A stretch of DNA of 64,000 nucleotides from NCBI GenBank assembly GCA_900128565.1, contig LT635914.1, positions 1 to 64,000 of the forward strand, given 5' to 3'. Of the stretch, positions 1 to 64,000 are shown piece by piece. A model generated the notes under the pieces. It searched no databases, was not told the origin of the DNA, and saw only the letters and a program-made list of their open reading frames with translations. Every line of letters starts with the position of its first letter. Positions within the stretch are counted from its first letter, which is position 1. The position numbers and the translations under genes are program-made. The DNA is from Stramenopiles sp. TOSAG23-6. Taxonomy: Eukaryota.

Positions 1-32
<32 letters not shown>

Positions 33-252
33 ATTTAAATTGATATTGGATATATTTTTATTATTATGATATCATTTAATAATTCAAATCAATCATTCTA
101 CATCTTTCTCTTATCCGATAGATATTTATTAGTCCAAAGGTTCACAACAATAAATGTATAAGTTATGTACTAGTATATATTCACAGATACCAAATCGGAA
201 AACATAACATACGAAGTGTTATACACCCTATCCCTAATAACTGTTTTTATGC

Positions 253-1122
253 TTAAAGAAAAAGGTTTTTACATAAATTTGCATAGTTTATATATTCTCC
301 CTCGGCAGACTCATCTATGAGAGAAGCAAAGCTTCTCCTCTCTCTAAAGTTCAGTGGAATTCCCATGGAAGTGATCACACGAATTATATCTTCTCGGAGA
401 ATTAAATTTTTATCATCAACCAACAGTTCACCACCAGAAGATTTTGCACGTTTTTCTCTATACACGTGGTTGAATAGACCTAATGCAGTCATAACCTCTG
501 CCATTTTCTTTGGATTTCTATTCTCTGGATGCTCCTTGATGTTGTCTTTTATCCATTGTCGATATTTCACACGTTTTCCTTCTACAGACTGACTAAAATC
601 GCGTTTGACATCTAGAAACACATATGGGGGGAAATATGCCAAGTCATAGGCACCGATTTTTGTTACCTTTCGTGTTTCTGTATTAATTACTGCCTTTGAG
701 CGTACGTTGAGAGGTTTAATGAAATTGGTTGTAAAGGCTAGCCAGTCTGTGTGTGATATAGTACCCCTATCGTTAACCTCCAGATAACCTTTGCTAGTGT
801 CAGAAACTCTGCACCGTTTAGCTGAATTGAACAATTTAAAGGCGTCTAATAGTTTTGGAGTGGTGAGTAAACCATTTTGTACCAATTTTGAGGACAGCAC
901 ATTCAAAAAGTCTTGTTCGGTAATGGATTTAGGATCAAGGCAAAATAGAATACGCTTGAACTCGCTAGTAGTTTGACAAAAGCCTAGAGATTGCATAGCT
1001 TGTGCAAGCTGTACAGGTGTGAGTAGTCCATCTCTATCTTTATCGAAGAAGCGGAAAGCGGCAAGATATTCTTCTTCTAACATATCGTGATCTGTTTGCT
1101 TAAACATACCACTGGATATCAT
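253..1122 (-). CDS. Divergent calmodulin-like multi-EF-hand protein (289 aa)
   Basis: AAFRFFDKDRDGLLTPVQLAQAMQSLG is a calmodulin/centrin-type EF1. The C-terminal IIRVITSMG...DESAEGEYINYANL resembles the calmodulin C-lobe. Confidence 0.8.
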   Translation of the reverse strand: MISSGMFKQTDHDMLEEEYLAAFRFFDKDRDGLLTPVQLAQAMQSLGFCQTTSEFKRILFCLDPKSITEQDFLNVLSSKLVQNGLLTTPKLLDAFKLFNSAKRCRVSDTSKGYLEVNDRGTISHTDWLAFTTNFIKPLNVRSKAVINTETRKVTKIGAYDLAYFPPYVFLDVKRDFSQSVEGKRVKYRQWIKDNIKEHPENRNPKKMAEVMTALGLFNHVYREKRAKSSGGELLVDDKNLILREDIIRVITSMGIPLNFRERRSFASLIDESAEGEYINYANLCKNLFL

Positions 1123-1367
1123 AATTATTTTTGTCGTGGTACTTTTCTAAATTAAAAAGATTTAGTTGCTTGAACAAAATTCTTTTTTCTAAGATACTCT
1201 TGATTTTTGAGATTTTTAACGGCCGTCCGTTCGGCGGTATGGTATCCCGGTAACCCTCGTCATTTATTTTCGGGTATTTACCGGAAATTAGATAAGGGCT
1301 TCTTCACCAACCACACCACACAATAGAATAGAATTAATGAAGAATTATTTTGCGTGTTAAAAAAACG

Positions 1368-2645
1368 ATGTATCAATGGGTGATGAAGAGATCAACACCA
1401 GAGAAAAGGAAGCGNCAATGTTCACCAGTACCCATGTTGTCTNTGAATAACTCTGATGGCGATGTGAGTGTTCATTCTACCACTCCTTTCAAGCGCCAAC
1501 GGTATGCCAGTGTGTATAGTTTTCACCGGAATTTGAATAATTCGAGGAGTGAAAACAGTCGTATGTCCCATGAGCATGGTACCGGTGATATTAATCGAGA
1601 AGAAGACTATAGACAAGAAGACGATAGATACTACGATACAGTGAATGACTTTGACCGTTGTTCCGTTGCGGAACTAAAGCGGCGTTTGTCTGCGCTAGGA
1701 GTAAATTTTGCGCACTGCACTGACCACGCAGATATGAAGTCACTTTTGCGAGAGCGAATGATGAGAATTGGCGAATCAGAGAATAATCTTACATCTTGCT
1801 TAGATACTGACAAAGAAGCTAAAGTAGCCAAAGTACACGCCCATCTTCAATTTAAACCTCACAAAACAGAAATAGGAAAAAACACTAAAAAAGACGAAAG
1901 TAACATGAAATCAGCACATAACCCTAACCCTACCGTAAAAAAATGTAATAGCAATATTGAAAATATGGGACAGTTGCATAATAAGACTGGACGTAAAAAG
2001 GAAGGTAGTCTTCCTGATAAATCTGATGAACCACAGAATAGCATAACAAGACTTCCGAAGAGAAAACTTGAGGAAAGCAAAATCCAACACAATTATTCTG
2101 GAAACCGGGTAAATCCAACAACTGGTACAGAGAAACAGGCTGTCGTCGAAGAAAAAGAATCGCATTCTGTACAACTTGTATCNCATCCATTAAAAAAACG
2201 TCGAATTATTCATAGTAATCAAGATAAAAATAATAACGAAAAGCAGAAAATAGAATTAGTAAATACACGAAATACCAGTAAAAGCGAAAAATCGACTAGT
2301 AAAAGAAAATATGCATTCATTTCCGATGGTGTATCTGAAAGCACTAGTACTAGTGGTGGTGAAAGTGATGCTCCACTAAAAAAATTTTGCTCAGATGTAA
2401 ACGATAATGAAAAAAATAGTGATGGTGGCAGTAGTTCTAATGTCAGTAGCANTATTTGTGGTGGTACTTCCGATAATTATGTAAAAGAGCCCAACCCTAA
2501 CCCTAAGTTTTTTGATCAAGAAGGTCATCAAGAAGGTATTGAACAGAAAACGGAAGGAGGAGAACAAACTGTAAATAGTTCAAAGTCGTCTCTTTTGACA
2601 AAAAAAACCTGGCGCAGTTTACGGCAATTATCTGTGGACGAATAA
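1368..2645 (+). CDS. Hypothetical low-complexity protein with a SAP/HeH-like motif
   Basis: Long ORF with first ATG at 1368. Motif CSVAELKRRLSALGVNFAHCTDHADMKSLL, K/R clusters (PLKKRR), otherwise S/N/K/E-rich. Confidence 0.6.
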   Translation: MYQWVMKRSTPEKRKXQCSPVPMLSXNNSDGDVSVHSTTPFKRQRYASVYSFHRNLNNSRSENSRMSHEHGTGDINREEDYRQEDDRYYDTVNDFDRCSVAELKRRLSALGVNFAHCTDHADMKSLLRERMMRIGESENNLTSCLDTDKEAKVAKVHAHLQFKPHKTEIGKNTKKDESNMKSAHNPNPTVKKCNSNIENMGQLHNKTGRKKEGSLPDKSDEPQNSITRLPKRKLEESKIQHNYSGNRVNPTTGTEKQAVVEEKESHSVQLVXHPLKKRRIIHSNQDKNNNEKQKIELVNTRNTSKSEKSTSKRKYAFISDGVSESTSTSGGESDAPLKKFCSDVNDNEKNSDGGSSSNVSSXICGGTSDNYVKEPNPNPKFFDQEGHQEGIEQKTEGGEQTVNSSKSSLLTKKTWRSLRQLSVDE

Positions 2646-2951
2646 TTCAAAGATTCTCTCTTTGACAACACAATTAGTCTATTGATTACATGATGAGATT
2701 TGTAACTAATAAAAATGTTCTAAACAATTAAANTTTNTCTAANTTTTTNGTTGTGGAACCGGGTACCTAAAAAAAATGTAACGTTTTTTTCGTTAGTAAA
2801 AATTTGCACTCTTGTACTAGTATCAATGAAAGTCTTTAAGTAAATATCCAACACGAATAGTCATCACAAAATAGTAATTTTTTAGTATTGATTACACACA
2901 TTGCGATAAAGGCTTGATTGACGAATAGGCATTTTTGATTATATTTTCTTC

Positions 2952-5850
2952 ATGCCAGCCACAGTTGATTCTAGTGAAGATGAGGAAAAGAATAGAAAAG
3001 AAGAGATCCAGCGACGAAAAAAAGCAGAGCTTAAGGAACTACTCACTAAACCTATAGTCTCTGCTGATGAAGATGCTTTCAACGAAGCAATATCTGGATT
3101 TGGGGGAGTNTATAAGATGCTACAAGCTCAAGGTGGTATGGGTAATTTTAAGCCTGAATTTGAAAAGTTATTTGAAAAAATTGGGAAACAATTTAAATCT
3201 GAAGTTGAACAAGTAAAAAAAACTTGCGAACTGATAAAGGACACAGAAGACAAAATATTGAAACTTGGTGGGCTCAAAAAACAAACCGAAGAGAGCGATT
3301 TTAGAGCAAATAATGTTAAGCGAGATATCAAAAAGTTTCAAGTTGAAATCAAACAATGTCAAGATTCAGAGGATATTGCTCGCGCGGAGATTAATAAACT
3401 TTCTATAAATATTTCTGATTTAGAGGACGAGATGGAAGTTGGTCCTGGCCTGACAAAGAATCAAAAGCTTGAATTATCTAATTTAGAAGATGAACGTGAT
3501 CAGAAACAACTTGAGTTGCAAGCATTGACGCAAGCATTGACAAACGTTCGATTCAAAACGTCGGGGCTTTCTGAACATGTATGTTTTATNTTTTTTCAAT
3601 TTCGAATTTATATTTTTTCATACGAAATTCCGTACCTAACGATTTTTTTTTGTGTCATATTTTTTCCAATACATGTAGAAATTAAACAACACGAACTTAC
3701 TGAAGTGACCTCTGCGGCAAAAGCTTTAGAAGGAGAAGTAAAAACATGTGAAGCACAGATTATTAGTGCACAAAACAAAAAGGATCGTTTTGATAAACAG
3801 TTAAAAATTCAGCGAGTTGAACTCCAACGTTTGCAAGCAATAGTCCAAACCAAAACAGTTAAAATCGATGAATCTACTAGTTTAAATGATAAATTTGAGT
3901 CAAAACAAAAAATAGCAGAACTCCAAATTGGTGTTTACCTCAAAGACTATGATGCTTTATTTCAGCAAATCAAAAAAGTTGAAGAAGATATTGAGGAGAG
4001 AATTCACACAAATGATCTCATTGAGCAAGGAAATGCTAGACGGTTAAAAGAATGCGGACAACGACAAAAAGAAGTTAGAGAAATCGAAAAAGAAATTCGC
4101 CGAGTTCGGAAACTGAAGAAGTTAACTGTTAAAAGGTACGAAGAAGCTGATCAGCGTATGCTTCGCTATGATAAAGTAAATGCTGATCTCCGAGCAAAGA
4201 TGTCAGGTGTNGAAGCAGCAATTGAAGTTGAAAAAAAGTTAGCGGATTCATTAAAAAAGGCGGCNGCAGATCATGAGCGAGATCGTACATTCTTGAATAA
4301 GAAACTTACAAAGGAAGAAATAGCAACAAAAGGAACNCATGATTTAGTTAAAGTTGCAGAAAACACCATAAAAAATGTTGGGCGAGATATGTATGTTTTA
4401 TTTTTTTTGTACGAAATTTTTTTTTCGTACGAAATGTTGTACCTAACAAAAATTAATTTTTTTTTGAAATATTTTTCCAAAATACATTCAACTATTTAAG
4501 GTCTCGGCGCGTAAACAGCGCGAAAGGATCGAAGCTTTAGAAATTGAGAGAGACAAATATGAGAAAGAATGCCATTTGGTAAATCAAAAATACTATGCTG
4601 CTCTTGAAGATGTTCGCCTGCATGAGCTTCAAGTAGTTGAAGAACAGAAAAAGATTGCAGNGGGTGAAAGTCGTATTAAAAAGCAGCAAAATTTGTATGA
4701 AGGGGTCCGGAGTGATCGTAATTTATACTCGAAGCAACTTATTGAATCCCATGAAGAAATAGCCGAAATGAAACGTAAATTTAAGATTCTTGTTCAAGTA
4801 ATTGAACAACAAAAAGAAGAAATCACTTCGAAAGACCAAGATCTTCTAAAAGAACATTTTGCTCATGTCAAGGTTTGTAAAGATGTTAAACGTCTTAGAA
4901 ATGATATTACGCGAGTACGCAAGCAAATCCTATCCTCCGATCAAATTCTCAGCACTCAAAAAGATGAAGTTCGGAAACTCAAAGCCATCATTCAGGAAGC
5001 TGACGGTGAAACTGCAAGGTCGTCAAAGGAGTTCACAGCTGTTGTAAATGAACGGGATATTCTTGGTGCGCAACTTATACGCCGAAATGAAGAGTTGGCT
5101 AAACTTTATGAAAAAATTAAGATTCAAAGATCAACACTATCCAAAGGTGAGTGGCAATATTCTCAAACTCAAGCAAGAGCCGAGGCATTGAAAGATGCAT
5201 TGGTCATTGCAAAAGAACGTCTTGATTATCTCAAGAGTAATGTTCTTGATCTATCATCAATGAAAACTAGGCAATATAGTCTTGAAAAAGAGATTTTGAG
5301 GGAGAAGGCCAAAATCACTGCTTTATCGACAGAATTAGAACGTCCAATGAATATACATAGATGGCGAAAACTTGCNGGTACCGACCCAAAACGATTTGGG
5401 CTCATTCAAAAAATCCAAAGAAAGCAAAAGCAACTACTGTCAAAAACACAGGAAGTGATAGAAAGAGACCTATTAATACAAGAAAAAGAAAGATTATATG
5501 TTGAATTGAAGAATATTCTAGCGAGNCAGCCAGGGCCTGAAGTTGCCGAGCAGCTAACGATATATGAAGAAAACCTAAAAGAAAAACGACACCAAATGAA
5601 AAAAATGGATAACGAACTTGACATGTATAAGCACCAAGTTGAAGAATTAAAACATGATATTGAGCAAATTTCAGAACGAATGATTTCGATGAAGAAAGAT
5701 TATTTTAGAAAGATGCGGAAGCAACAACAAGATATGCAAATACAACAACAACAACTACATTTGGAACAACAGAGTCAACAGCATCAAATACAAATGCAAC
5801 AGAAAATGGAATTATTTCAAAATGAAATTAATGAAAGTGAACAAAAATAA
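2952..5850 (+). CDS. CFAP58: Cilia- and flagella-associated protein 58, 3 exons (2952-3578, 3675-4390, 4488-5850; about 901 aa)
   Basis: Coiled coil with family motifs KQQNLYEGVRSDRNLYSK, ERDILGAQLIRRNEELAKLYEKIKIQ, PMNIHRWRKL and QPGPEVAEQL. Two ORFs are joined by removing two T-rich introns. Confidence 0.92.
3579..3674 (+). other. CFAP58 intron 1 (96 nt, non-canonical GT..AT / AT..AC; boundary slides within an ACATGTA direct repeat)
   Basis: GTATGT donor, TACCTAAC branch-like motif and T tracts. Read-through inserts 32 hydrophobic residues into a coiled coil. Confidence 0.8.
4391..4487 (+). other. CFAP58 intron 2 (97 nt, probably non-canonical GT..AT / AT..AC)
   Basis: GTATGT donor and TACCTAAC motif. 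Removal joins the two frames as NVGRD-IQLFKVSARKQR. Confidence 0.78.
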
Positions 5851-6055
5851 AAATCATGTTTCATTGTACAAACCTGTCCAATATTTTCATACGTTGTTGT
5901 AACGTTAACGTTTATTTTCTTTTTTGATACCCTCGAAATTAGTATCTAATAGCTAGTATCAAAATTTCTTAGATTCAATTCATCGATATACGTCCAAATT
6001 TTACTCGCACATAGTATTAGAGAAAATGCAACAACAGTAAGTGAGCATCTANACA

Positions 6056-9000
6056 ATGTTGGGAAACGCTTCAGAGCCTCGAGNGTTTGCCAAAGANTTG
6101 CCAGAGATGGAGGGTTTTGATGTTGTTGGTTCATTCTTTGGTCGTGGTTCTGGTCATACTANCAAAAAGTCTACGGCTGTAGAAGTAGAAAACGCAAAGA
6201 CAGCTAAACATGAAATAGTTCCTCAAATTGATAACGATGTGCAGAACCGTATAGAAGTTCCAGAGAAGAAGAAGAAGAAGAAGATAAGAAAGAAGAAAAG
6301 TCGCAAAGAACTTTGCAAAGAACAGATTGCCCAGGAGAGGTTCCCAGCCGCAATCACCACAGCCAAGAAAGGTATTCTAATGAACCCTAAAGATATAGAG
6401 ATGCATAAATTGCTTGCAATGGCCGAGCGCATGGAGAGACAGAGAACAGAACATGTCTCTGCTAGCTGGCTAAAGAGACGAATCCGCAAAAATCGGCANC
6501 CAGTTCTGAAAATAAGTGAGTTCGATACTAGTAAAACATTTGAGCATACGGAACCAATGAATGCTTCAGCCGACATAATACCGCGACCAGATCCAGTGAA
6601 TCCTGGAGCCACACAAATAACGGCAAAGCANATGCAACGAGGAAGAAAAGCAAAGGANAGTAGCATGAAGCTATCAGACTCAAAATCTATTCCATACCAT
6701 GTAAAGAAACAAGAAGATTTCANACGATACAATAAATCTTTGCAACGACTGAGAACAACTGGAAACCCTAGTTCATCAGAAATGCGAACTCAAACGAAAT
6801 ACGGCAACTCTGGCAACCAGTATAAGCAAAGAATACGTCCTTCTACAGCCCCTGCAATGTTATCAAAAGAGAAGAAAGTAAGCGGGAAATCGGGGAATAT
6901 TAATTATCAGAGGCAAAGAAAACTATTGGCAACGTTTGGTATACCTTTTGACTTAGAATCAAAAACTCGANGTTATGNTAACAATAGAAAAGCTTTTTCT
7001 GCCCAACGTGGGATGCGTCCGTCGACATCATGTTCACCTCGNAAAAAATATTTTANGGGAGATAAAAAANAAAAATCTACTTCATTGTCACCTAGACGTC
7101 GCAGTAATAATTCTAGGTTTCCAGATGTTGAAGAAGTATACCCCATAAAAATTAACTCGCATGTACATTTGCCACATTTAAACATCAAAATGCCTATACC
7201 TATTCAAACGCTTCATGCTCACCACATACACAATGATTGCACCGAAATTCGATTGTCGTCTCACTACACCAATATTTCTTCAAAGCAAATGTCACAAGGG
7301 AAGACGAGACAAAAACCTATCAATCAAAAAAATGCAAANCAAAGAGAACTCATATTAATGCATAGAGAGGACTGTGCATCACATCATTGTATGATATGGG
7401 GTGAAGGAGAGGCTGCCCTTCGAGCACATGGATTTCAACGGAATGTATACATTTATTTGGCATCNGTAGGAAAGGGATTTGAAGAAGAACATTGGGTTTT
7501 CCACAATGTAGTAGTCCCATTATTGAATCGCCGACTGAAAGAAAAAAACTTGTGTATACNTGTTCAACTAAAAGATGGATCTCACGTTGAAACGTCACTT
7601 AATTTGTTGGAAAATATGCAGCGTGGTATCAAAACATGTAAACCATTCTATGTTGCGTTGATTGGTGAAGAATATGGGTGGATTCCGGATACAAAATTGT
7701 GTGGTGCTAACGGTGTGAGATCTCTCTTTCACATGACAATAAAAGCAATGAATCGTTCAGCACTTCCAAGTCATCGTTTCATATACAACCGAATATTGAA
7801 AAATAATACAAAAATCAGTAAGGAGAATTNGAATTTAAATCTTTTGGAAATTGATATTAAATCATATGATGAAAAGTTTTCTAAATCTTGTAGAAATACT
7901 TATGAATGTAGACAAGGGGCACTCAATGAGGTGAATAGTATAGACAGACTTAGTTTAAATACATTGGCAAGTATAGCAATTGATGACATATTTGAGGCTT
8001 TACAGTACGAGTTTGGATTTGATTGTAGTCCTTGCACTTATGGTTTACCTGGAAACTACGACTCTGTCAAAACATCACAATCAAAATTAGAAGTTTCAGG
8101 GCATAAATTGTTAATTCAAGAAAGTTTTCTTCACCAACACCTTGTATCACAATATACATCTCAATATGTACCATATTTCAGTGATGATTTTAATGACCGA
8201 GTAGTTGATGAAATAATGGATGAATTGTGGACAGCAGGTGAACACGGAAAACCTTTAGTGTGGGAAAGGCCCCTTAATCTTGCCGGTATTGGCGTGACAA
8301 CACTATGTGCGAAGATAGCTCATGTATGTCCTAAAGTTTGTAAAGAAAAGGAGCGCAATAGTGTAATTTCTTTATCTCATTTTGTTGGTGCATCACCTAA
8401 TAGTTATGATTGTAGACGTATGCTATTCCGTTTGTGTTTTGAACTTCAANCACGTTTTGAAATTTGTGTCAATACTAGAATCCCAGGAGAATACTCCAGC
8501 CTCCGGCCGTATTTTTTTAATTTGCTTGATAAAGTTGCNCTTAAAGCTGAAAGAGATAACCTTCAATTATTGATATGCATTGATGATGCTCATAAGTTAA
8601 GTGTTCCGTACAAGTCTGAAGAATTTGACTGGATACCTTATCGCTTTCGAAACAATGGCCATATTATGATTATGATCACCATGCCTATGGGGAAATTACC
8701 GAAAGGAAAACCAGAAACTGCNGTATTTGACATCAAACATTTACTACCATCTGGCAAGACCTTGATAAAATTTAGTACTCTAGTGGTAAAATCTTTNATC
8801 AGAAGATCGAATATTGCCAGCAAATCTTTATTNCATAGAAATATAGATAATACACTTATCTCATTGATTGATATGNTGTCCAACACAGAATTTCAAAACA
8901 TCACAATTACACCTCTATATCTGGAAATTGCAACATATATTTTCTTTTCTGAAGACTTAGGGGTTTCACGCAAATCTTTTCCGAACAGTTTGGACGGAAT

Positions 9001-12000
9001 AATTAATTGTGTTATAACACATTTTGAAGAAACATTCGGATATGACGTTACTTGCAATTTATTCTCATTAATTCACTTATCGCTTTTTGGTATTTTTACG
9101 TGTGATATTCCTAACATCTTGAAGATAGTAGAAACTANTCGGAAGCAATCATATACTAAAAAAGGGTTGCTTGATGCACTAATTTCAAGTATGCGAGGTT
9201 TTCTACAACTTGTAGAACTGAGTCCGTATCCAAACATGTTGTGTATACANCATGAAAGAATATCACAGATTATAGAAGCGAAATACTTGGGAGGTCCAGG
9301 TTCGGCTAATCGTGACATTTATGTTAGTGCTCTGGTACAATGGTGCAGAAGTGTTTCGGATCCATATTGTGATTATTCTTTCCGTAAGCCAAATCCATAT
9401 GCCCTTCAGGTGTATCCATTTTATCTTTGCCAACTGCAAGATCCCTCGAAAATGGGATTTCTCCAAATATGTTCAGTCTTTTGCAATTTGAGATTTCTCA
9501 AGGCCTATATNGTATTAGATGGTGCATCTGTGTATGAACTTATTGATCATTTTCANTATTTACTTCCAAATATCTTAGCCAAGCCGAATTTAATTTGTGA
9601 ATCTTTTATAAATTCTGAAAAGCTGAAGCCTTTAACTGAGAATGTAATTACAANTGAGAATGGGACGAGNACTAAGATTCTACCAGATTGTCTACGATCT
9701 CGAAGAGGGGAAATTGTCCAAGGCATTCAAAAGTATTTAACCTCAAAGGGAAACGAAAATTCTAAGCCAGTGAAATCAGCAATTCCAAAAATGCTACGCT
9801 TCCCTGAAATTAGTATTGATAATACGTTAAAGCGTTTCACTACAATGTTCACAAAATCTATTACAGAGCATTTTTTCTTTCTCAGAGAGCGATCAATAGA
9901 ACTGAATTCATCTCCTACAAAGATTTTCCAGCAAGCTTTGGGNAGTCAGGGTATCTCATCCATTGCGGCGGACTTTTGTACAAGTACATTGGAATCAAAT
10001 ATTGACACATTTGGCGCCTGTCCCATACTGATTCAACAGAAACTTCTATGCAAAGATACTGAACGAAAAGACGCTAANCATGTTTATGCTGATATGAGAA
10101 TGAATGTAATGTGTATGTCTCCGAATAAAGCTCAAGCTTTAATCGGATTTGAGAATGCAAATCTACAAATAATAACTATAGATGAAACAATGACAGTAGA
10201 TAAAAGCTTAGAAGGTCACACTTCTGGGATAACAAGTGTTTCGTGGTGCAGAGAGTGCATAGCTTCAGGTGATAGAGCTGGGGATATTCTTATTTGGAAN
10301 AGCCCAGAGTATGAACTAACTTCCCGTATTGANGGGGGTCATAGCTCTTCCTCNGTTTCAGATATTTCATTGACATATAATGGACTTTGGATTGTATCAG
10401 TATCTTCCGACTCCGCAATAAGATTCTGGAATTGCAAGAAATCCTCNGAGCAAGTAACTTCGTGGTCTGCAGCGTATGAATTAAGTCAGTTTACTGCGGT
10501 TGATTTTTCCCCATTTGGCGATAAGTGTGCTGTTGGTAATATCACTGGCAATATCATTTTATTTGATACTGATNATATTTCCGGGAGCAAAATTGTCATC
10601 GAAATAAAATATACAGCACACCATTTGGACAGAGTGACGTCATTGACTTGGCANCAAAGCAACGACGTGTTTTGCACTACTTCGTTAGACGGATGTGCCA
10701 TGCTGTGGAGTACAACAGGTAATATGTTCCTAGGTAAGAACCCAAATAACGGTGGTTGTATTTGTGTACTACGAGAAGATAAGGGTCATTCACGTGGCTT
10801 ATTAAGCGCGGCGTTTAANGATGAAAAAGAAGGAGAACTTATTACATGCGGGCTAGATAATAGTATTTTGCTCTGGGATATTAAGAAATGCAAAGTAATT
10901 CGATCTATTAGTGGACATAATGATGCAGTAAGCGGTTGTGATTTCCTCCATGATGGGACCATCACCAGTTGTAGCCACGACACTACTGTGCGGTTATTTC
11001 TCCATACAGGAATGCAGTTAGGTTCTTCTTCAGATAAACGGTTGATGCTGAATGGGAAAACCCACAAACATTCTAATNGGGTTATGTGCTGTAAAGTAAG
11101 TCATGATTCTCGGTACGTTGCGTGTGGTTCACTAGACTTATCGTTACATTTATGGGATATACAATTGAATCAATTAGCATGTAAACTCAAAGGGCATATA
11201 GATTCAGTCTTATCAATTGCATTTGCATCACCCCAAAAGNGTGGCGAAATAATACTTTTCTCAGGCGGTGATGACGTTGATTCAAAAATTGTTGCGTGGA
11301 AATTTTCCACGGCCATTCAAAGCAAGANAAAGAAGCAACCACATGCATCCTTACTAGCATCCGAATTAAGCACAATGGCCGCACACAACACAGGTATAAC
11401 ATGCTTAGTTGTGAATGAAGACCGTCTTATTTCGGGGGATAAAAACTCACTCATTGCAATTTGGGGATCTGGTAGCAAAACTAACGCATGGTCAAATCCT
11501 NAAAAACTGTATAATGTAAATTTGAAGTTTGGTCCTATTTCTTCATTCGTGCTTTCCACTAATAGTGGTGAAGATGGAAGTTACTTAGTAGTAATGAATG
11601 ATGTGGGGGTGGTGAACACACATTGCGTGGATCTTGAAAATAGTTCACTATCTTTACGTAATGCAACACCAAATTGGAATGCTTCCAATCACCCAAAACT
11701 TCGAGGTAGATTAAGCGCCATGTGCATTGCAGCAGATGGAAATTTAATTGCAATTGGTGATGATATTTCTAACATTGCAGTNTGGAATACCCTAAGTTTG
11801 GCTAGAAAACCAGAAATCTCGACACTGCCTGGTGCATTTGCTGGACATTCTGCGGCAATATCGACGCTAGCATTTTCACCAAATCTCATGTTTCTTGTAT
11901 CTGGAGGTTATGATCAACGAATGATGTTATGGTGCCCCNTTACTGGGTATAGGTACTGTGAATATAAGTTTTATGTTTGTATTACTGCAATATTTGTTTC

Positions 12001-12829
12001 TTCTGACAACAAAACTTTGACTTGTGGAGATGACACAGGTAATATTTATATAATGCAAATATACGAACCACTGGCTGGTTTAGGACAAATCAATCGAATA
12101 TTTACAATGAACATTTTATACCAGCGGTGGGGAAAGGTCGTAGATAAATTTGGTTCTATAATCAGTTGCAGCGATTCAAAATCACCCAAACAAAATAAAA
12201 AGGCTAGAAAAGGAAGAAAGAGAAGTATAGGTTGGGCGGTATTAGAAAAAAAAATAAGGTCAAGGGCTAAATGGAAGCGTGAAAATAATTCATATTTGAT
12301 TGCAAATTTATCCAGATCGGAAGATAATGAAGACAACCAAGAAAAAAGAGATTCTTTGGATATTATAGATTTATTCCAACAAAAAGGAATGATTTACAAC
12401 AGATTTATCATTGATGCTCAGTCTCGTTTAAAATTGACATTCTGGGAATTGCGGGATTTTTACATTACTTCTATTGCGTCAAAAATTCACGAAAATCATC
12501 GTAAGCTTTTTCTAAAATTTGACGGTACTTACACTTCAAACAAAGTAATTGTCGGAGGAAAAAGTTTTGATTTTTCTAATTTAAGTTTTGAAGACCTTCC
12601 GTGTACATCGCAGTATCGCCTCCTGGAAGTAGCTACTGCCGCAGTGAATGTAATTATGTCACATTTCCTTCAATGTTGCTCAAGTGAAGCATTGAGATTG
12701 GAGTTTTCCATCTTGCCAGAGCACTGTGTTCAAGTATTTGACCAGTTATCTGACGAAAGTATCGACACGCGCCTCGTAAATGAAGCATTAAATTTAGTAT
12801 TTATTGAATTCCAGAATAATAAAAAATAA
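6056..12829 (+). CDS. TEP1/NWD-like STAND protein: TPR-like and disordered N-terminus, DUF4062-like domain, NACHT-like NTPase, WD40 repeats
   Basis: VYIYLA..FEEEHWVFHNVVVPLL..FYVALIGEEYGWIP (DUF4062-like); GIGVTT, HFVGASPNS and LLICIDDAHKL (NACHT of TEP1/NWD type); many GH...W/WD repeats; first ATG at 6056. Confidence 0.82.
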   Translation: MLGNASEPRXFAKXLPEMEGFDVVGSFFGRGSGHTXKKSTAVEVENAKTAKHEIVPQIDNDVQNRIEVPEKKKKKKIRKKKSRKELCKEQIAQERFPAAITTAKKGILMNPKDIEMHKLLAMAERMERQRTEHVSASWLKRRIRKNRXPVLKISEFDTSKTFEHTEPMNASADIIPRPDPVNPGATQITAKXMQRGRKAKXSSMKLSDSKSIPYHVKKQEDFXRYNKSLQRLRTTGNPSSSEMRTQTKYGNSGNQYKQRIRPSTAPAMLSKEKKVSGKSGNINYQRQRKLLATFGIPFDLESKTRXYXNNRKAFSAQRGMRPSTSCSPXKKYFXGDKKXKSTSLSPRRRSNNSRFPDVEEVYPIKINSHVHLPHLNIKMPIPIQTLHAHHIHNDCTEIRLSSHYTNISSKQMSQGKTRQKPINQKNAXQRELILMHREDCASHHCMIWGEGEAALRAHGFQRNVYIYLAXVGKGFEEEHWVFHNVVVPLLNRRLKEKNLCIXVQLKDGSHVETSLNLLENMQRGIKTCKPFYVALIGEEYGWIPDTKLCGANGVRSLFHMTIKAMNRSALPSHRFIYNRILKNNTKISKENXNLNLLEIDIKSYDEKFSKSCRNTYECRQGALNEVNSIDRLSLNTLASIAIDDIFEALQYEFGFDCSPCTYGLPGNYDSVKTSQSKLEVSGHKLLIQESFLHQHLVSQYTSQYVPYFSDDFNDRVVDEIMDELWTAGEHGKPLVWERPLNLAGIGVTTLCAKIAHVCPKVCKEKERNSVISLSHFVGASPNSYDCRRMLFRLCFELQXRFEICVNTRIPGEYSSLRPYFFNLLDKVXLKAERDNLQLLICIDDAHKLSVPYKSEEFDWIPYRFRNNGHIMIMITMPMGKLPKGKPETXVFDIKHLLPSGKTLIKFSTLVVKSXIRRSNIASKSLXHRNIDNTLISLIDMXSNTEFQNITITPLYLEIATYIFFSEDLGVSRKSFPNSLDGIINCVITHFEETFGYDVTCNLFSLIHLSLFGIFTCDIPNILKIVETXRKQSYTKKGLLDALISSMRGFLQLVELSPYPNMLCIXHERISQIIEAKYLGGPGSANRDIYVSALVQWCRSVSDPYCDYSFRKPNPYALQVYPFYLCQLQDPSKMGFLQICSVFCNLRFLKAYXVLDGASVYELIDHFXYLLPNILAKPNLICESFINSEKLKPLTENVITXENGTXTKILPDCLRSRRGEIVQGIQKYLTSKGNENSKPVKSAIPKMLRFPEISIDNTLKRFTTMFTKSITEHFFFLRERSIELNSSPTKIFQQALXSQGISSIAADFCTSTLESNIDTFGACPILIQQKLLCKDTERKDAXHVYADMRMNVMCMSPNKAQALIGFENANLQIITIDETMTVDKSLEGHTSGITSVSWCRECIASGDRAGDILIWXSPEYELTSRIXGGHSSSXVSDISLTYNGLWIVSVSSDSAIRFWNCKKSXEQVTSWSAAYELSQFTAVDFSPFGDKCAVGNITGNIILFDTDXISGSKIVIEIKYTAHHLDRVTSLTWXQSNDVFCTTSLDGCAMLWSTTGNMFLGKNPNNGGCICVLREDKGHSRGLLSAAFXDEKEGELITCGLDNSILLWDIKKCKVIRSISGHNDAVSGCDFLHDGTITSCSHDTTVRLFLHTGMQLGSSSDKRLMLNGKTHKHSNXVMCCKVSHDSRYVACGSLDLSLHLWDIQLNQLACKLKGHIDSVLSIAFASPQKXGEIILFSGGDDVDSKIVAWKFSTAIQSKXKKQPHASLLASELSTMAAHNTGITCLVVNEDRLISGDKNSLIAIWGSGSKTNAWSNPXKLYNVNLKFGPISSFVLSTNSGEDGSYLVVMNDVGVVNTHCVDLENSSLSLRNATPNWNASNHPKLRGRLSAMCIAADGNLIAIGDDISNIAXWNTLSLARKPEISTLPGAFAGHSAAISTLAFSPNLMFLVSGGYDQRMMLWCPXTGYRYCEYKFYVCITAIFVSSDNKTLTCGDDTGNIYIMQIYEPLAGLGQINRIFTMNILYQRWGKVVDKFGSIISCSDSKSPKQNKKARKGRKRSIGWAVLEKKIRSRAKWKRENNSYLIANLSRSEDNEDNQEKRDSLDIIDLFQQKGMIYNRFIIDAQSRLKLTFWELRDFYITSIASKIHENHRKLFLKFDGTYTSNKVIVGGKSFDFSNLSFEDLPCTSQYRLLEVATAAVNVIMSHFLQCCSSEALRLEFSILPEHCVQVFDQLSDESIDTRLVNEALNLVFIEFQNNKK

Positions 12830-12931
12830 ATGTAAAATCAATAAATCTCATAGGTTTCATCAAAGCTTTTTGCAAGTAATCTTTTTGTGGCAATTTACAT
12901 TAAAAACGGATAGATATATCCTATGACTCAA

Positions 12932-15926: not shown

Positions 15927-16040
15927 GTACGTTTTCACTACATTTTACATATATTTTGTTTTTTCGTGTTTTTTACGAAAAAAAAAATTTGTACTTGAAA
16001 ATTGTTTTTTTTACTCAAAAAAAAAAAAAAAAAAAAAAAT
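15927..16040 (+). other. 5' part of a GlyRS intron running into the fold-back centre
   Basis: GTACGT donor followed by T/A tracts; no downstream exon in the window. Confidence 0.75.
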
Positions 16041-26230: not shown

Positions 26231-29129
26231 TTATTTTTGTTCACTTTCATTAATTTCATTTTGAAATAATTCCATTTTCTGTTGCATTTGTATTTGATGC
26301 TGTTGACTCTGTTGTTCCAAATGTAGTTGTTGTTGTTGTATTTGCATATCTTGTTGTTGCTTCCGCATCTTTCTAAAATAATCTTTCTTCATCGAAATCA
26401 TTCGTTCTGAAATTTGCTCAATATCATGTTTTAATTCTTCAACTTGGTGCTTATACATGTCAAGTTCGTTATCCATTTTTTTCATTTGGTGTCGTTTTTC
26501 TTTTAGGTTTTCTTCATATATCGTTAGCTGCTCGGCAACTTCAGGCCCTGGCTGNCTCGCTAGAATATTCTTCAATTCAACATATAATCTTTCTTTTTCT
26601 TGTATTAATAGGTCTCTTTCTATCACTTCCTGTGTTTTTGACAGTAGTTGCTTTTGCTTTCTTTGGATTTTTTGAATGAGCCCAAATCGTTTTGGGTCGG
26701 TACCNGCAAGTTTTCGCCATCTATGTATATTCATTGGACGTTCTAATTCTGTCGATAAAGCAGTGATTTTGGCCTTCTCCCTCAAAATCTCTTTTTCAAG
26801 ACTATATTGCCTAGTTTTCATTGATGATAGATCAAGAACATTACTCTTGAGATAATCAAGACGTTCTTTTGCAATGACCAATGCATCTTTCAATGCCTCG
26901 GCTCTTGCTTGAGTTTGAGAATATTGCCACTCACCTTTGGATAGTGTTGATCTTTGAATCTTAATTTTTTCATAAAGTTTAGCCAACTCTTCATTTCGGC
27001 GTATAAGTTGCGCACCAAGAATATCCCGTTCATTTACAACAGCTGTGAACTCCTTTGACGACCTTGCAGTTTCACCGTCAGCTTCCTGAATGATGGCTTT
27101 GAGTTTCCGAACTTCATCTTTTTGAGTGCTGAGAATTTGATCGGAGGATAGGATTTGCTTGCGTACTCGCGTAATATCATTTCTAAGACGTTTAACATCT
27201 TTACAAACCTTGACATGAGCAAAATGTTCTTTTAGAAGATCTTGGTCTTTCGAAGTGATTTCTTCTTTTTGTTGTTCAATTACTTGAACAAGAATCTTAA
27301 ATTTACGTTTCATTTCGGCTATTTCTTCATGGGATTCAATAAGTTGCTTCGAGTATAAATTACGATCACTCCGGACCCCTTCATACAAATTTTGCTGCTT
27401 TTTAATACGACTTTCACCCNCTGCAATCTTTTTCTGTTCTTCAACTACTTGAAGCTCATGCAGGCGAACATCTTCAAGAGCAGCATAGTATTTTTGATTT
27501 ACCAAATGGCATTCTTTCTCATATTTGTCTCTCTCAATTTCTAAAGCTTCGATCCTTTCGCGCTGTTTACGCGCCGAGACCTTAAATAGTTGAATGTATT
27601 TTGGAAAAATATTTCAAAAAAAAATTAATTTTTGTTAGGTACAACATTTCGTACGAAAAAAAAATTTCGTACAAAAAAAATAAAACATACATATCTCGCC
27701 CAACATTTTTTATGGTGTTTTCTGCAACTTTAACTAAATCATGNGTTCCTTTTGTTGCTATTTCTTCCTTTGTAAGTTTCTTATTCAAGAATGTACGATC
27801 TCGCTCATGATCTGCNGCCGCCTTTTTTAATGAATCCGCTAACTTTTTTTCAACTTCAATTGCTGCTTCNACACCTGACATCTTTGCTCGGAGATCAGCA
27901 TTTACTTTATCATAGCGAAGCATACGCTGATCAGCTTCTTCGTACCTTTTAACAGTTAACTTCTTCAGTTTCCGAACTCGGCGAATTTCTTTTTCGATTT
28001 CTCTAACTTCTTTTTGTCGTTGTCCGCATTCTTTTAACCGTCTAGCATTTCCTTGCTCAATGAGATCATTTGTGTGAATTCTCTCCTCAATATCTTCTTC
28101 AACTTTTTTGATTTGCTGAAATAAAGCATCATAGTCTTTGAGGTAAACACCAATTTGGAGTTCTGCTATTTTTTGTTTTGACTCAAATTTATCATTTAAA
28201 CTAGTAGATTCATCGATTTTAACTGTTTTGGTTTGGACTATTGCTTGCAAACGTTGGAGTTCAACTCGCTGAATTTTTAACTGTTTATCAAAACGATCCT
28301 TTTTGTTTTGTGCACTAATAATCTGTGCTTCACATGTTTTTACTTCTCCTTCTAAAGCTTTTGCCGCAGAGGTCACTTCAGTAAGTTCGTGTTGTTTAAT
28401 TTCTACATGTATTGGAAAAAATATGACACAAAAAAAAATCGTTAGGTACGGAATTTCGTATGAAAAAATATAAATTCGAAATTGAAAAAANATAAAACAT
28501 ACATGTTCAGAAAGCCCCGACGTTTTGAATCGAACGTTTGTCAATGCTTGCGTCAATGCTTGCAACTCAAGTTGTTTCTGATCACGTTCATCTTCTAAAT
28601 TAGATAATTCAAGCTTTTGATTCTTTGTCAGGCCAGGACCAACTTCCATCTCGTCCTCTAAATCAGAAATATTTATAGAAAGTTTATTAATCTCCGCGCG
28701 AGCAATATCCTCTGAATCTTGACATTGTTTGATTTCAACTTGAAACTTTTTGATATCTCGCTTAACATTATTTGCTCTAAAATCGCTCTCTTCGGTTTGT
28801 TTTTTGAGCCCACCAAGTTTCAATATTTTGTCTTCTGTGTCCTTTATCAGTTCGCAAGTTTTTTTTACTTGTTCAACTTCAGATTTAAATTGTTTCCCAA
28901 TTTTTTCAAATAACTTTTCAAATTCAGGCTTAAAATTACCCATACCACCTTGAGCTTGTAGCATCTTATANACTCCCCCAAATCCAGATATTGCTTCGTT
29001 GAAAGCATCTTCATCAGCAGAGACTATAGGTTTAGTGAGTAGTTCCTTAAGCTCTGCTTTTTTTCGTCGCTGGATCTCTTCTTTTCTATTCTTTTCCTCA
29101 TCTTCACTAGAATCAACTGTGGCTGGCAT
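26231..29129 (-). CDS. CFAP58: CFAP58 (copy 2; introns 28407-28502 and 27594-27690)
   Basis: Mirror of 2952-5850. Confidence 0.9.
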
Positions 29130-37987: not shown

Positions 37988-40886
37988 ATGCCAGCCACAG
38001 TTGATTCTAGTGAAGATGAGGAAAAGAATAGAAAAGAAGAGATCCAGCGACGAAAAAAAGCAGAGCTTAAGGAACTACTCACTAAACCTATAGTCTCTGC
38101 TGATGAAGATGCTTTCAACGAAGCAATATCTGGATTTGGGGGAGTNTATAAGATGCTACAAGCTCAAGGTGGTATGGGTAATTTTAAGCCTGAATTTGAA
38201 AAGTTATTTGAAAAAATTGGGAAACAATTTAAATCTGAAGTTGAACAAGTAAAAAAAACTTGCGAACTGATAAAGGACACAGAAGACAAAATATTGAAAC
38301 TTGGTGGGCTCAAAAAACAAACCGAAGAGAGCGATTTTAGAGCAAATAATGTTAAGCGAGATATCAAAAAGTTTCAAGTTGAAATCAAACAATGTCAAGA
38401 TTCAGAGGATATTGCTCGCGCGGAGATTAATAAACTTTCTATAAATATTTCTGATTTAGAGGACGAGATGGAAGTTGGTCCTGGCCTGACAAAGAATCAA
38501 AAGCTTGAATTATCTAATTTAGAAGATGAACGTGATCAGAAACAACTTGAGTTGCAAGCATTGACGCAAGCATTGACAAACGTTCGATTCAAAACGTCGG
38601 GGCTTTCTGAACATGTATGTTTTATNTTTTTTCAATTTCGAATTTATATTTTTTCATACGAAATTCCGTACCTAACGATTTTTTTTTGTGTCATATTTTT
38701 TCCAATACATGTAGAAATTAAACAACACGAACTTACTGAAGTGACCTCTGCGGCAAAAGCTTTAGAAGGAGAAGTAAAAACATGTGAAGCACAGATTATT
38801 AGTGCACAAAACAAAAAGGATCGTTTTGATAAACAGTTAAAAATTCAGCGAGTTGAACTCCAACGTTTGCAAGCAATAGTCCAAACCAAAACAGTTAAAA
38901 TCGATGAATCTACTAGTTTAAATGATAAATTTGAGTCAAAACAAAAAATAGCAGAACTCCAAATTGGTGTTTACCTCAAAGACTATGATGCTTTATTTCA
39001 GCAAATCAAAAAAGTTGAAGAAGATATTGAGGAGAGAATTCACACAAATGATCTCATTGAGCAAGGAAATGCTAGACGGTTAAAAGAATGCGGACAACGA
39101 CAAAAAGAAGTTAGAGAAATCGAAAAAGAAATTCGCCGAGTTCGGAAACTGAAGAAGTTAACTGTTAAAAGGTACGAAGAAGCTGATCAGCGTATGCTTC
39201 GCTATGATAAAGTAAATGCTGATCTCCGAGCAAAGATGTCAGGTGTNGAAGCAGCAATTGAAGTTGAAAAAAAGTTAGCGGATTCATTAAAAAAGGCGGC
39301 NGCAGATCATGAGCGAGATCGTACATTCTTGAATAAGAAACTTACAAAGGAAGAAATAGCAACAAAAGGAACNCATGATTTAGTTAAAGTTGCAGAAAAC
39401 ACCATAAAAAATGTTGGGCGAGATATGTATGTTTTATTTTTTTTGTACGAAATTTTTTTTTCGTACGAAATGTTGTACCTAACAAAAATTAATTTTTTTT
39501 TGAAATATTTTTCCAAAATACATTCAACTATTTAAGGTCTCGGCGCGTAAACAGCGCGAAAGGATCGAAGCTTTAGAAATTGAGAGAGACAAATATGAGA
39601 AAGAATGCCATTTGGTAAATCAAAAATACTATGCTGCTCTTGAAGATGTTCGCCTGCATGAGCTTCAAGTAGTTGAAGAACAGAAAAAGATTGCAGNGGG
39701 TGAAAGTCGTATTAAAAAGCAGCAAAATTTGTATGAAGGGGTCCGGAGTGATCGTAATTTATACTCGAAGCAACTTATTGAATCCCATGAAGAAATAGCC
39801 GAAATGAAACGTAAATTTAAGATTCTTGTTCAAGTAATTGAACAACAAAAAGAAGAAATCACTTCGAAAGACCAAGATCTTCTAAAAGAACATTTTGCTC
39901 ATGTCAAGGTTTGTAAAGATGTTAAACGTCTTAGAAATGATATTACGCGAGTACGCAAGCAAATCCTATCCTCCGATCAAATTCTCAGCACTCAAAAAGA
40001 TGAAGTTCGGAAACTCAAAGCCATCATTCAGGAAGCTGACGGTGAAACTGCAAGGTCGTCAAAGGAGTTCACAGCTGTTGTAAATGAACGGGATATTCTT
40101 GGTGCGCAACTTATACGCCGAAATGAAGAGTTGGCTAAACTTTATGAAAAAATTAAGATTCAAAGATCAACACTATCCAAAGGTGAGTGGCAATATTCTC
40201 AAACTCAAGCAAGAGCCGAGGCATTGAAAGATGCATTGGTCATTGCAAAAGAACGTCTTGATTATCTCAAGAGTAATGTTCTTGATCTATCATCAATGAA
40301 AACTAGGCAATATAGTCTTGAAAAAGAGATTTTGAGGGAGAAGGCCAAAATCACTGCTTTATCGACAGAATTAGAACGTCCAATGAATATACATAGATGG
40401 CGAAAACTTGCNGGTACCGACCCAAAACGATTTGGGCTCATTCAAAAAATCCAAAGAAAGCAAAAGCAACTACTGTCAAAAACACAGGAAGTGATAGAAA
40501 GAGACCTATTAATACAAGAAAAAGAAAGATTATATGTTGAATTGAAGAATATTCTAGCGAGNCAGCCAGGGCCTGAAGTTGCCGAGCAGCTAACGATATA
40601 TGAAGAAAACCTAAAAGAAAAACGACACCAAATGAAAAAAATGGATAACGAACTTGACATGTATAAGCACCAAGTTGAAGAATTAAAACATGATATTGAG
40701 CAAATTTCAGAACGAATGATTTCGATGAAGAAAGATTATTTTAGAAAGATGCGGAAGCAACAACAAGATATGCAAATACAACAACAACAACTACATTTGG
40801 AACAACAGAGTCAACAGCATCAAATACAAATGCAACAGAAAATGGAATTATTTCAAAATGAAATTAATGAAAGTGAACAAAAATAA
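37988..40886 (+). CDS. CFAP58: CFAP58 (copy 3; introns 38615-38710 and 39427-39523)
   Basis: 2952-5850 + 35036. Confidence 0.9.
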
Positions 40887-61266: not shown

Positions 61267-64000
61267 TTATTTTTGTTCACTTTCATTAATTTCATTTTGA
61301 AATAATTCCATTTTCTGTTGCATTTGTATTTGATGCTGTTGACTCTGTTGTTCCAAATGTAGTTGTTGTTGTTGTATTTGCATATCTTGTTGTTGCTTCC
61401 GCATCTTTCTAAAATAATCTTTCTTCATCGAAATCATTCGTTCTGAAATTTGCTCAATATCATGTTTTAATTCTTCAACTTGGTGCTTATACATGTCAAG
61501 TTCGTTATCCATTTTTTTCATTTGGTGTCGTTTTTCTTTTAGGTTTTCTTCATATATCGTTAGCTGCTCGGCAACTTCAGGCCCTGGCTGNCTCGCTAGA
61601 ATATTCTTCAATTCAACATATAATCTTTCTTTTTCTTGTATTAATAGGTCTCTTTCTATCACTTCCTGTGTTTTTGACAGTAGTTGCTTTTGCTTTCTTT
61701 GGATTTTTTGAATGAGCCCAAATCGTTTTGGGTCGGTACCNGCAAGTTTTCGCCATCTATGTATATTCATTGGACGTTCTAATTCTGTCGATAAAGCAGT
61801 GATTTTGGCCTTCTCCCTCAAAATCTCTTTTTCAAGACTATATTGCCTAGTTTTCATTGATGATAGATCAAGAACATTACTCTTGAGATAATCAAGACGT
61901 TCTTTTGCAATGACCAATGCATCTTTCAATGCCTCGGCTCTTGCTTGAGTTTGAGAATATTGCCACTCACCTTTGGATAGTGTTGATCTTTGAATCTTAA
62001 TTTTTTCATAAAGTTTAGCCAACTCTTCATTTCGGCGTATAAGTTGCGCACCAAGAATATCCCGTTCATTTACAACAGCTGTGAACTCCTTTGACGACCT
62101 TGCAGTTTCACCGTCAGCTTCCTGAATGATGGCTTTGAGTTTCCGAACTTCATCTTTTTGAGTGCTGAGAATTTGATCGGAGGATAGGATTTGCTTGCGT
62201 ACTCGCGTAATATCATTTCTAAGACGTTTAACATCTTTACAAACCTTGACATGAGCAAAATGTTCTTTTAGAAGATCTTGGTCTTTCGAAGTGATTTCTT
62301 CTTTTTGTTGTTCAATTACTTGAACAAGAATCTTAAATTTACGTTTCATTTCGGCTATTTCTTCATGGGATTCAATAAGTTGCTTCGAGTATAAATTACG
62401 ATCACTCCGGACCCCTTCATACAAATTTTGCTGCTTTTTAATACGACTTTCACCCNCTGCAATCTTTTTCTGTTCTTCAACTACTTGAAGCTCATGCAGG
62501 CGAACATCTTCAAGAGCAGCATAGTATTTTTGATTTACCAAATGGCATTCTTTCTCATATTTGTCTCTCTCAATTTCTAAAGCTTCGATCCTTTCGCGCT
62601 GTTTACGCGCCGAGACCTTAAATAGTTGAATGTATTTTGGAAAAATATTTCAAAAAAAAATTAATTTTTGTTAGGTACAACATTTCGTACGAAAAAAAAA
62701 TTTCGTACAAAAAAAATAAAACATACATATCTCGCCCAACATTTTTTATGGTGTTTTCTGCAACTTTAACTAAATCATGNGTTCCTTTTGTTGCTATTTC
62801 TTCCTTTGTAAGTTTCTTATTCAAGAATGTACGATCTCGCTCATGATCTGCNGCCGCCTTTTTTAATGAATCCGCTAACTTTTTTTCAACTTCAATTGCT
62901 GCTTCNACACCTGACATCTTTGCTCGGAGATCAGCATTTACTTTATCATAGCGAAGCATACGCTGATCAGCTTCTTCGTACCTTTTAACAGTTAACTTCT
63001 TCAGTTTCCGAACTCGGCGAATTTCTTTTTCGATTTCTCTAACTTCTTTTTGTCGTTGTCCGCATTCTTTTAACCGTCTAGCATTTCCTTGCTCAATGAG
63101 ATCATTTGTGTGAATTCTCTCCTCAATATCTTCTTCAACTTTTTTGATTTGCTGAAATAAAGCATCATAGTCTTTGAGGTAAACACCAATTTGGAGTTCT
63201 GCTATTTTTTGTTTTGACTCAAATTTATCATTTAAACTAGTAGATTCATCGATTTTAACTGTTTTGGTTTGGACTATTGCTTGCAAACGTTGGAGTTCAA
63301 CTCGCTGAATTTTTAACTGTTTATCAAAACGATCCTTTTTGTTTTGTGCACTAATAATCTGTGCTTCACATGTTTTTACTTCTCCTTCTAAAGCTTTTGC
63401 CGCAGAGGTCACTTCAGTAAGTTCGTGTTGTTTAATTTCTACATGTATTGGAAAAAATATGACACAAAAAAAAATCGTTAGGTACGGAATTTCGTATGAA
63501 AAAATATAAATTCGAAATTGAAAAAANATAAAACATACATGTTCAGAAAGCCCCGACGTTTTGAATCGAACGTTTGTCAATGCTTGCGTCAATGCTTGCA
63601 ACTCAAGTTGTTTCTGATCACGTTCATCTTCTAAATTAGATAATTCAAGCTTTTGATTCTTTGTCAGGCCAGGACCAACTTCCATCTCGTCCTCTAAATC
63701 AGAAATATTTATAGAAAGTTTATTAATCTCCGCGCGAGCAATATCCTCTGAATCTTGACATTGTTTGATTTCAACTTGAAACTTTTTGATATCTCGCTTA
63801 ACATTATTTGCTCTAAAATCGCTCTCTTCGGTTTGTTTTTTGAGCCCACCAAGTTTCAATATTTTGTCTTCTGTGTCCTTTATCAGTTCGCAAGTTTTTT
63901 TTACTTGTTCAACTTCAGATTTAAATTGTTTCCCAATTTTTTCAAATAACTTTTCAAATTCAGGCTTAAAATTACCCATACCACCTTGAGCTTGTAGCAT
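61267..64000 (-). CDS. CFAP58: CFAP58 (copy 4, 5' end outside the window; introns 63443-63538 and 62630-62726)
   Basis: Translation identical to the other copies. Confidence 0.88.

Follow-up and report, generated by a model that had tools for sequence, protein, structure and literature searches.

A repeated family of predicted GT-AT introns, probably introner-derived, and a U1 RNA that fits its donor site

We describe a 96-nucleotide (nt) segment of the CFAP58 gene in contig LT635914.1 (positions 1 to 64,000; this 64,000-nt stretch is the window of our analysis). With fairly high confidence, it is one of several thousand GT…AT introns of about 98 nt that stem from an introner, fit the U1 small nuclear RNA (snRNA) of their own genome and, judged from sequence, would be removed by the major (U2-type) spliceosome. 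This GT-AT family is probably the dominant intron class of the genome, and introner-derived. A first-pass annotation of the window had proposed that the major spliceosome tolerates an AT acceptor here; the tolerance fits the U1 complementarity and the register tests presented below, but it is no one-off. Few bases in eukaryotes are as conserved as the terminal G of introns, which plays a structural part when exons are ligated. Could an entire intron family do without it?

Two candidate introns in CFAP58

The signals that the first-pass annotation had listed for intron 1 are all in place: a GTATGT donor at 3579, a branch-like TACCTAAC, the acceptor triplet CAT and a 7-nt direct repeat (Table 1). 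Translation bears out its claim that the adjacent AG is unusable. Splicing from GT3579 to AG3678 removes 100 nt and meets a stop nine codons later, and splicing from GT3583 to the same AG creates an in-frame stop at the junction. Removal of the 96 nt from GT3579 to AT3674 leaves an open frame, and when the unspliced CFAP58 frame is aligned with the EukProt homologue P0001, a single gap appears, of exactly 32 residues, at intron 1. Two further options raised at the time, an open GT3583-AG3705 splice that shortens the protein by nine codons and the stop-free, in-frame retention of 32 hydrophobic residues, are disfavored by the same alignment: P0001 retains the nine residues and lacks exactly the 32.

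Intron 2, of 97 nt and missed by that annotation, shares with intron 1 its start, the TACCTAAC element and the …AATAC-AT end. Its retention is excluded because 97 nt is not a multiple of three and shifts the frame; splicing from its donor to the nearest AG (4500) is likewise a frameshift. With both introns removed, CFAP58 is a protein of 901 amino acids (aa) that shares 62.9% identity with P0001 in an alignment of 855 columns; nine of these are gap columns, as many as are seen near the C terminus of exon 3. The in-frame GT-AG options for the two introns require other donors or distant acceptors, and they lose or replace residues that P0001 keeps. A third family-like donor lies in the glycyl-tRNA synthetase gene, where the exonic AAT supplies the Asn of homologues; this candidate intron is without a TACCTAAC core before the sequence breaks off.

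A family of several thousand copies

The genome assembly that holds the window (G000; 21.1 Mb in 6,236 contigs) contains 5,347 matches to the donor motif ATGTAYGTTTT, against 180 for the reversed control. The 3' motif of the family ends in YAT 3,475 times and in YAG 128 times (control, 0). Duplicated and mirrored contigs inflate these genome-wide counts to some extent; 125 of 130 sampled donor matches were unique. Individual copies were analyzed in a sample of 80 loci, drawn from the longest contigs and amounting to 798 kb of the 21.1 Mb. End-score filters blind to the flanking dinucleotides reduced the 272 core matches of this sample to 145 copies, the basis of the copy-level results below.

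The copies share a donor profile GTAYGTTTT and measure 76–144 nt (median 98, without an excess of multiples of three), the branch-like motif lying about 40 nt from the end. Their last two bases are AT in 120 copies, GT in 8, TT in 7, AG in 6, AA in 2 and another dinucleotide in 2. The AT acceptor is preferred, not required, and the YAG acceptor of U2-type introns is not that of this family. When the family ends are taken as the cut, 121 copies gain an open frame that extends 120 nt or more to either side; cuts shifted by −1, +1 or +2 achieve this in 17, 14 and 17. In the SHMT gene (locus L100), both GT-AT junctions are collinear with all eight homologues examined. A noisy census found the core in 86 of the 239 coding gaps among those listed.

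Canonical introns seem to be rare in this genome. A frame scan for GT-AG introns did not rise above its controls (4 candidates, compared with 4, 4 and 8). One canonical CAG|GTAAGT…AACAG intron in an FKBP-like gene is clear by eye (locus L038, plus strand, about 2397–2496), and the same spliceosome therefore still handles standard introns, or a second U1 exists. At loci L031–L110 a few family copies have a GC, AT, GA or GG donor in place of GT (about 4–5% per position), which suggests some tolerance at the 5' splice site as well. Telomere-like TAGGGT/ACCCTA repeats occur in the 5' part of several copies (L083 and L091, both on the minus strand, and L035). Locus L067 (plus strand, 6986–7630) contains nested or tandemly duplicated copies, some with two donors or two cores. 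Long genes in this genome are often without any family copy.

A U1 arm that matches the family donor

The only U1 gene found in the assembly lies on contig C1146, with a duplicate in C6122. In the Rfam alignment its 5' arm, AAACGUACAUG, departs from the consensus AUACUUACCUG by U2>A, U5>G and C9>A, and these substitutions face donor positions +7 (U), +4 (Y) and −1 (U), respectively. A canonical arm would pair at these three positions in 1%, 1% and 4% of copies, the genome's own arm in 99%, 99% and 90%. Over the whole site, the own arm is computed to bind better than the canonical one in 142 of 145 copies (mean −9.4 versus −2.0 kcal/mol). The fit of all three changes to the family donor may be read as a sign that the splicing machinery and the spreading intron family are mutually adapted. 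The branch-pairing region of U2, loop 1 of U5 and the ACAGAGA of U6 are unchanged; TACCTAAC is conserved across the family, and its computed duplex with U2 GUAGUA is weak (−2.8 kcal/mol). Among the factors that the first-pass annotation had singled out for inspection, U1 carries substitutions, whereas the Prp8 alpha finger and U6 ACAGAGA do not.

A degenerate family copy is present on the U6 contig. On C1146, the U5, U2, U1 and U4 genes stand head to tail, a few bases apart and within 640 bases (locus L111, 9–645), followed by a tRNA-like stretch. The cluster is possibly one transcription unit.

Origin of the family

The 2-bp flanks of an element are identical in 110 of the 145 copies. Identical pairs other than AT number 15 (GT/GT 6, TT/TT 5, AG/AG 3 and AA/AA 1), compared with 1.6 in shuffles (maximum 8 of 10,000). 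Median pairwise identity between copies is 80%, and 92% to the nearest neighbor, versus 54% and 67% with shuffled interiors; the reconstructed empty site favors (C)AT followed by G. The co-varying flanks and the identity of the copies suggest a transposon-derived introner. On this view the element multiplied as a small, non-autonomous transposon with (C)AT^G as its target, each insertion duplicating two bases; the exon would then keep one AT, and the other would become the last two bases of the intron. Donor and branch would thus be brought along by the element, and the acceptor would come from the 2-bp duplication.

Splice register and competing explanations

With AT at both ends, a GT-AT cut and an AT-AC cut give identical mRNA, as they do in 110 of the 145 copies. 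How can the two be told apart? In the AT-AC register, served by the major or the minor spliceosome, the intron would start two bases earlier (ATGTATGT) and end at the AC of AATAC. AC does precede the last dinucleotide in most copies, and A…C ends are structurally tolerated, according to the accessible portion of 10.1101/212811. U1 pairing, however, averages 10.21 of 11 bases at the AT|GT cut, with C8 on the G of GT, and 5.98 of 11 at the AT-AC cut. AT is kept at the 5' flank in 102 copies and at the 3' end in 120; 25 copies have lost only the 5' AT and 7 only the 3' AT (p 0.002). Position −2 is a third codon position in 8 of the 12 copies with a single change there, compared with 21 of 80 unchanged copies (p 0.008). 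Drift of the kind expected in exons is thus seen at the 5' AT but not at the 3' AT, which argues for the GT-AT register. Copies with unlike dinucleotides at their two ends include L099 5107–5213, L067 8051–8158, L105 2801–2892, L078 281–368 and L082 2403–2494. When the dinucleotide was masked during frame choice, 3 of 27 mismatched copies ran into a stop under the AT-AC reading, and no copy did so under the GT reading; a weaker indication comes from ClpB, where an AT-AC junction would give Ile and the three shown structures that reach the position have Val. The earlier view that intron 1 is no classical U12 AT-AC intron is upheld by the lack of an RTATCCTT donor and by the U1 match, which fixes the cut at AT|GT; U12 and U6atac gave no matches in this incomplete assembly (U11 and U4atac were not searched for). 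By these sequence tests the register is GT-AT, and we consider AT-AC a remote alternative. Scarcely less remote is conventional GT-AG splicing to cryptic AGs close by, at the cost of a few residues lost in frame. It could make use of GT3583-AG3705 in intron 1 and of GT4395-AG4500 in intron 2 (three residues shorter), and among 124 non-AG copies with a clear frame, 51 offer an AG no more than 30 nt from the end that keeps the frame and meets no stop. The other 73 have none; the offsets of downstream AGs, spread evenly over 3–30 nt, show no in-frame enrichment (92, 88 and 76 at 0, 1 and 2 modulo 3); residues that would be lost are kept in homologues; and the CFAP58 options need donors mismatched to U1. 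That intron 1 is retained, or that its CAT is a miscalled CAG, is close to negligible in our estimation. Its length and lack of stops would permit retention, and the assembly does contain Ns and fold-back artifacts, but the homologue is without the insert, intron 2 cannot be retained in frame, and copies that are both stop-free and a multiple of three in length number 13 of 121. A base-call error is implausible because 3,475 copies end in YAT, although none of the listed contigs of the independent DNA run X4 spans 3641–3710.

Might the segments be removed by other means? DNA elimination, for which the internal eliminated sequences of ciliates are a model, and non-spliceosomal RNA excision, proposed for the nonconventional introns of euglenids, are together very unlikely. 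Non-AG ends, 2-bp direct repeats and short inverted ends would suit either, and intron 2 can fold with its ends paired. Intron 1, by contrast, folds weakly (−5.5 kcal/mol) with its ends unpaired; the sense strand matches U1 and has a branch-like motif as well as a 3' part rich in U; and no element-skipping joint was seen in DNA run X4, a weak point against elimination. Unlikely, though less so, is the view that the copies are spliced as GT-AT without being transposon-derived: they would have arisen by reverse splicing or look alike through strong selection on cis signals, and the flank repeat would reflect a preference of U1. It agrees with the explanation favored here on splicing and differs in origin alone. 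U1 preference would by itself account for the exonic AT; the terminal inverted repeats are confined to the first 3–4 bases (81, 91, 92 and 64%) and overlap the splice signals; neither a transposase nor a long copy was seen among 12 orphan donors, with no genome-wide transposase search made; and, in a weak test, none of the 145 copies lies between two closed flanks. Against it stand the identical non-AT pairs, which are far above shuffles and which reverse splicing would not yield, and interiors that are alike beyond the splice signals.

The 3' splice site and a proposed mechanism

In the yeast P complex, as described in the accessible portion of 10.1101/212811, G(−1) pairs with G(+1), A(−2) pairs with the branch A, and Gln1594 of Prp8 reads the −3 pyrimidine. 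A UAU acceptor in yeast gives very low reporter activity and a shift to a cryptic AG (PMC12707134, in part). The family acceptors mostly keep the −3 pyrimidine and the −2 A and have lost G(−1), and even GT and TT ends occur. The segment of Prp8 that matches human residues 1301–1700 is highly conserved, and the alpha-finger stretch around the glutamine is identical to the human one. One candidate for U2AF65 was found. The Prp8 gene (locus L116, contig C84) can be read through 2,021 aa before any stop; the stretch corresponding to human residues 1441–1451 differs within a nearly identical region.

In the mechanism that we propose, U1 with its U2>A, U5>G and C9>A changes would pair with CAT|GTAYGTTT and so set the 5' cut, and the unchanged U2 would read the TACCTAAC branch. 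The 3' cut would fall two bases past the element's own TTTTTYCAMAATAY motif, some 40 nt from the branch and largely without an AG. Such an acceptor would keep the −3 pyrimidine and −2 A of YAG and exchange the terminal G for U, with GT, TT and AA tolerated at lower frequency. Our best guess is that assembly is AG-independent and driven by the strong U1 and branch signals; that the last base is relaxed through U2AF35 or the step-2 factors Prp18, Slu7 and Prp22 is a guess, prompted by the unchanged alpha-finger region of Prp8. On a broader scenario, to which we lean less than halfway, one intron-making transposon took over the intron set and the major spliceosome was retuned to it: U1 would have been rewritten to fit the insertion site as far as base −1 of the exon. 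The 3' cut would be measured from the element's motif regardless of the last two bases, perhaps without U2AF35. If true, nature would here have produced a U2 spliceosome independent of AG, with a core RNA that co-evolved with a mobile element.

Several observations weigh against the explanation favored here, in addition to the in-frame AGs and the points on origin set out above. Given the very low activity of the yeast UAU acceptor and the pairing of G(−1) with G(+1), something must differ from yeast, and the Prp8 alpha finger shows no change that would account for an AT acceptor. U2AF35 was not found in the assembly: the single match to a degenerate motif lay in an unrelated gene and is put down to chance, and the 10 of 16 zf-CCCH matches examined (9 loci) did not include it. 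The U1 candidate scores 54.1 bits, below the Rfam gathering cut-off of 69.5, and the sole motif match on its contig is the U1 arm itself. The end-score filter was passed by 145 of 272 core matches; the 127 that failed include degenerate copies, truncated copies and antisense matches on the palindromic core. One of the three AT-AC stop cases (L074, AT/GA) may have a mis-set end. Neither exon 2 nor the family core had any match in metagenomes, from which near records may be missing, and no empty allele was found. Across positions 2900–4210, where gene coverage is patchy, no contig from three RNA runs (X5, X8 and X10) bridges intron 1, and the core in RNA contigs could stem from DNA carry-over, pre-mRNA, related organisms or retention.

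Exon pieces with 0–1 differences occur in the RNA runs and in the independent DNA run X4; because the differences are so few, the organism or a near strain was present in those samples. An X5 RNA contig that starts at 3677 is no evidence for splicing. The intron core occurs in hundreds of contigs, in DNA and RNA runs alike, and the family is present outside the runs of the assembly itself. Several loose-end consensuses in X4 and X8 continue to ACAT, with low agreement. No spliced protein of the same species was found, the best SHMT match being 85% identical and the best CFAP58 matches 51–70%. PDB alignments for a USP junction were taken up by TPR matches.

Relation to known systems

The comparisons below draw on the accessible portions of the papers cited. 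The non-canonical U2-type introns of Fritillaria borealis and F. pellucida resemble the present family, as interpreted here, in a transposon-like origin, the major spliceosome alone (PMC13326754, PMC11282704) and a YAY triplet before the donor and at the acceptor; AT is their commonest 3' end (34% and 44%; PMC13326754). Their donors, however, are diverse and mainly AG, their U1 has kept its 5' end strictly, and U2AF is present in duplicate. Here, the donor is uniformly GT, a single family prevails, and U1 itself carries three substitutions. The Fritillaria combination of duplicated, divergent U2AF with an unchanged U1 was not found in this genome, which has a changed U1 and one U2AF65 candidate.

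Introners of Micromonas, Aureococcus, dinoflagellates and other lineages likewise consist of many similar short introns in unrelated genes (10.1101/2022.06.06.494994, PMC12130899, PMC11282704), and they show the pattern, proposed here too, in which one splice site is carried and the other is co-opted from the target-site duplication (10.1101/2022.06.06.494994, PMC11282704). In contrast to these, the presumed co-opted acceptor of the present family is AT (or GT, TT or AA) and not AG, the duplication is 2 bp, and the inverted ends are very short; PMC12130899 expects only AG and AC as introner 3' sites. Amoebophrya, also a marine protist, has repeated non-canonical introns with target-site duplications, but its U1 is reported as apparently absent (PMC11282704), unlike the matched U1 found here. 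Compensatory change in the U1 5' arm is known from Entamoeba (AACAAAC) and Mastigamoeba balamuthi (ACGUAC; 10.1101/2022.06.08.495308). The ACGUAC core of our U1 equals the Mastigamoeba variant, to which it adds C9>A, facing the −1 U of the exon, and U2>A, facing the +7 U; the amoeban cases concern donor sites, and not an AT acceptor or a repeated family. U12-type AT-AC introns have AT and AC near their ends, as here (PMC13326754), but the present family is without their RTATCCTT donor, and the register tests favor GT-AT. A literature search, which left most subscription papers and all supplements outside its coverage, including introner supplement tables that could bear on novelty, found no description of a GT-AT intron family in a protist. 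The accessible portions of two papers on single-cell protist genomes (PMC5778133, 10.64898/2026.04.17.719054) make no mention of unusual splice sites.

A genome that combines GT-AT introns by the thousand with an unaltered alpha finger in Prp8 and three compensatory changes in U1 would amount to a natural experiment on acceptor choice, and the same genome bears on whether mobile introns can drive change in a core snRNA. Annotation-based introner surveys depend on correct gene models; in this organism, models that assume GT-AG are probably wrong, and surveys that rely on them probably blind.

The window, its assembly and neighboring features

The window is eukaryotic, with a GC content of about 36%, and the sequencing runs that contain its sequence are marine. 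It is a fold-back concatemer: a perfect palindrome is centered at 16040/16041, with 0 mismatches over 16,040 pairs, a second center lies at 33558/33559, and the direct period is 35,036, N positions included. Unique sequence is limited to about 1–16040 and 32081–33558, so that each gene is present two to four times and CFAP58 intron 1 four times (Table 1). Duplicated or mirrored contigs occur elsewhere in the assembly too (C13/C14, C27).

Table 1. Coordinates of CFAP58 exons, predicted introns and related features in the window
Feature	Position	Strand	Remarks
CFAP58 exon 1	2952..3578	+	last two bases AT, the copy of the 2-bp repeat that stays in the exon
CFAP58 intron 1 (predicted)	3579..3674	+	96 nt, GT...AT; member of the repeated family
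Intron 1 5' splice site	3576..3586	+	11/11 bases pair with own U1 arm, 8/11 with canonical arm
Intron 1 family core	3617..3640	+	branch-like TACCTAAC at 3633-3640; putative branch A at 3639
Intron 1 conserved 3' motif	3657..3674	+	T run and CCAATAC, then AT; acceptor triplet CAT at 3672-3674
CFAP58 exon 2	3675..4390	+	homologue alignment, translation
CFAP58 intron 2 (predicted)	4391..4487	+	97 nt, GT...AT; same family; branch-like TACCTAAC at 4440-4447
CFAP58 exon 3	4488..5850	+	Pfam PF21771 CFAP58_CC, E 1.9e-60
Third family-like donor, AT|GTACGTTTT, in glycyl-tRNA synthetase gene (14712-16040)	15927..16040	+	intron cut by fold-back at 16040
Mirror copy, CFAP58 intron 1	28407..28502	-	assembly or padding artifact, not independent
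Repeat copy, CFAP58 intron 1	38615..38710	+	artifact, not independent
Mirror copy, CFAP58 intron 1	63443..63538	-	artifact, not independent

In a FastTree phylogeny of the glycyl-tRNA synthetase exon, built from 31 of 120 listed matches picked by name or rank, the neighbor is Blastocystis (local support 0.87), deeper nodes being weak. From this one gene the organism is, with low confidence, probably a heterotrophic stramenopile.

A canonical-looking GTGAGT…TTATAG segment, a candidate intron only, lies at 33834–33899 on the plus strand of the window and is mirrored at about 33218–33283 on the minus strand. It stands upstream of a gene with nine zf-CCHC knuckles (33872–34783) and may come from another organism. 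Positions 6041–12829 (plus strand) encode a TEP1-like protein of 2,260 aa with many WD40 repeats and no intron.

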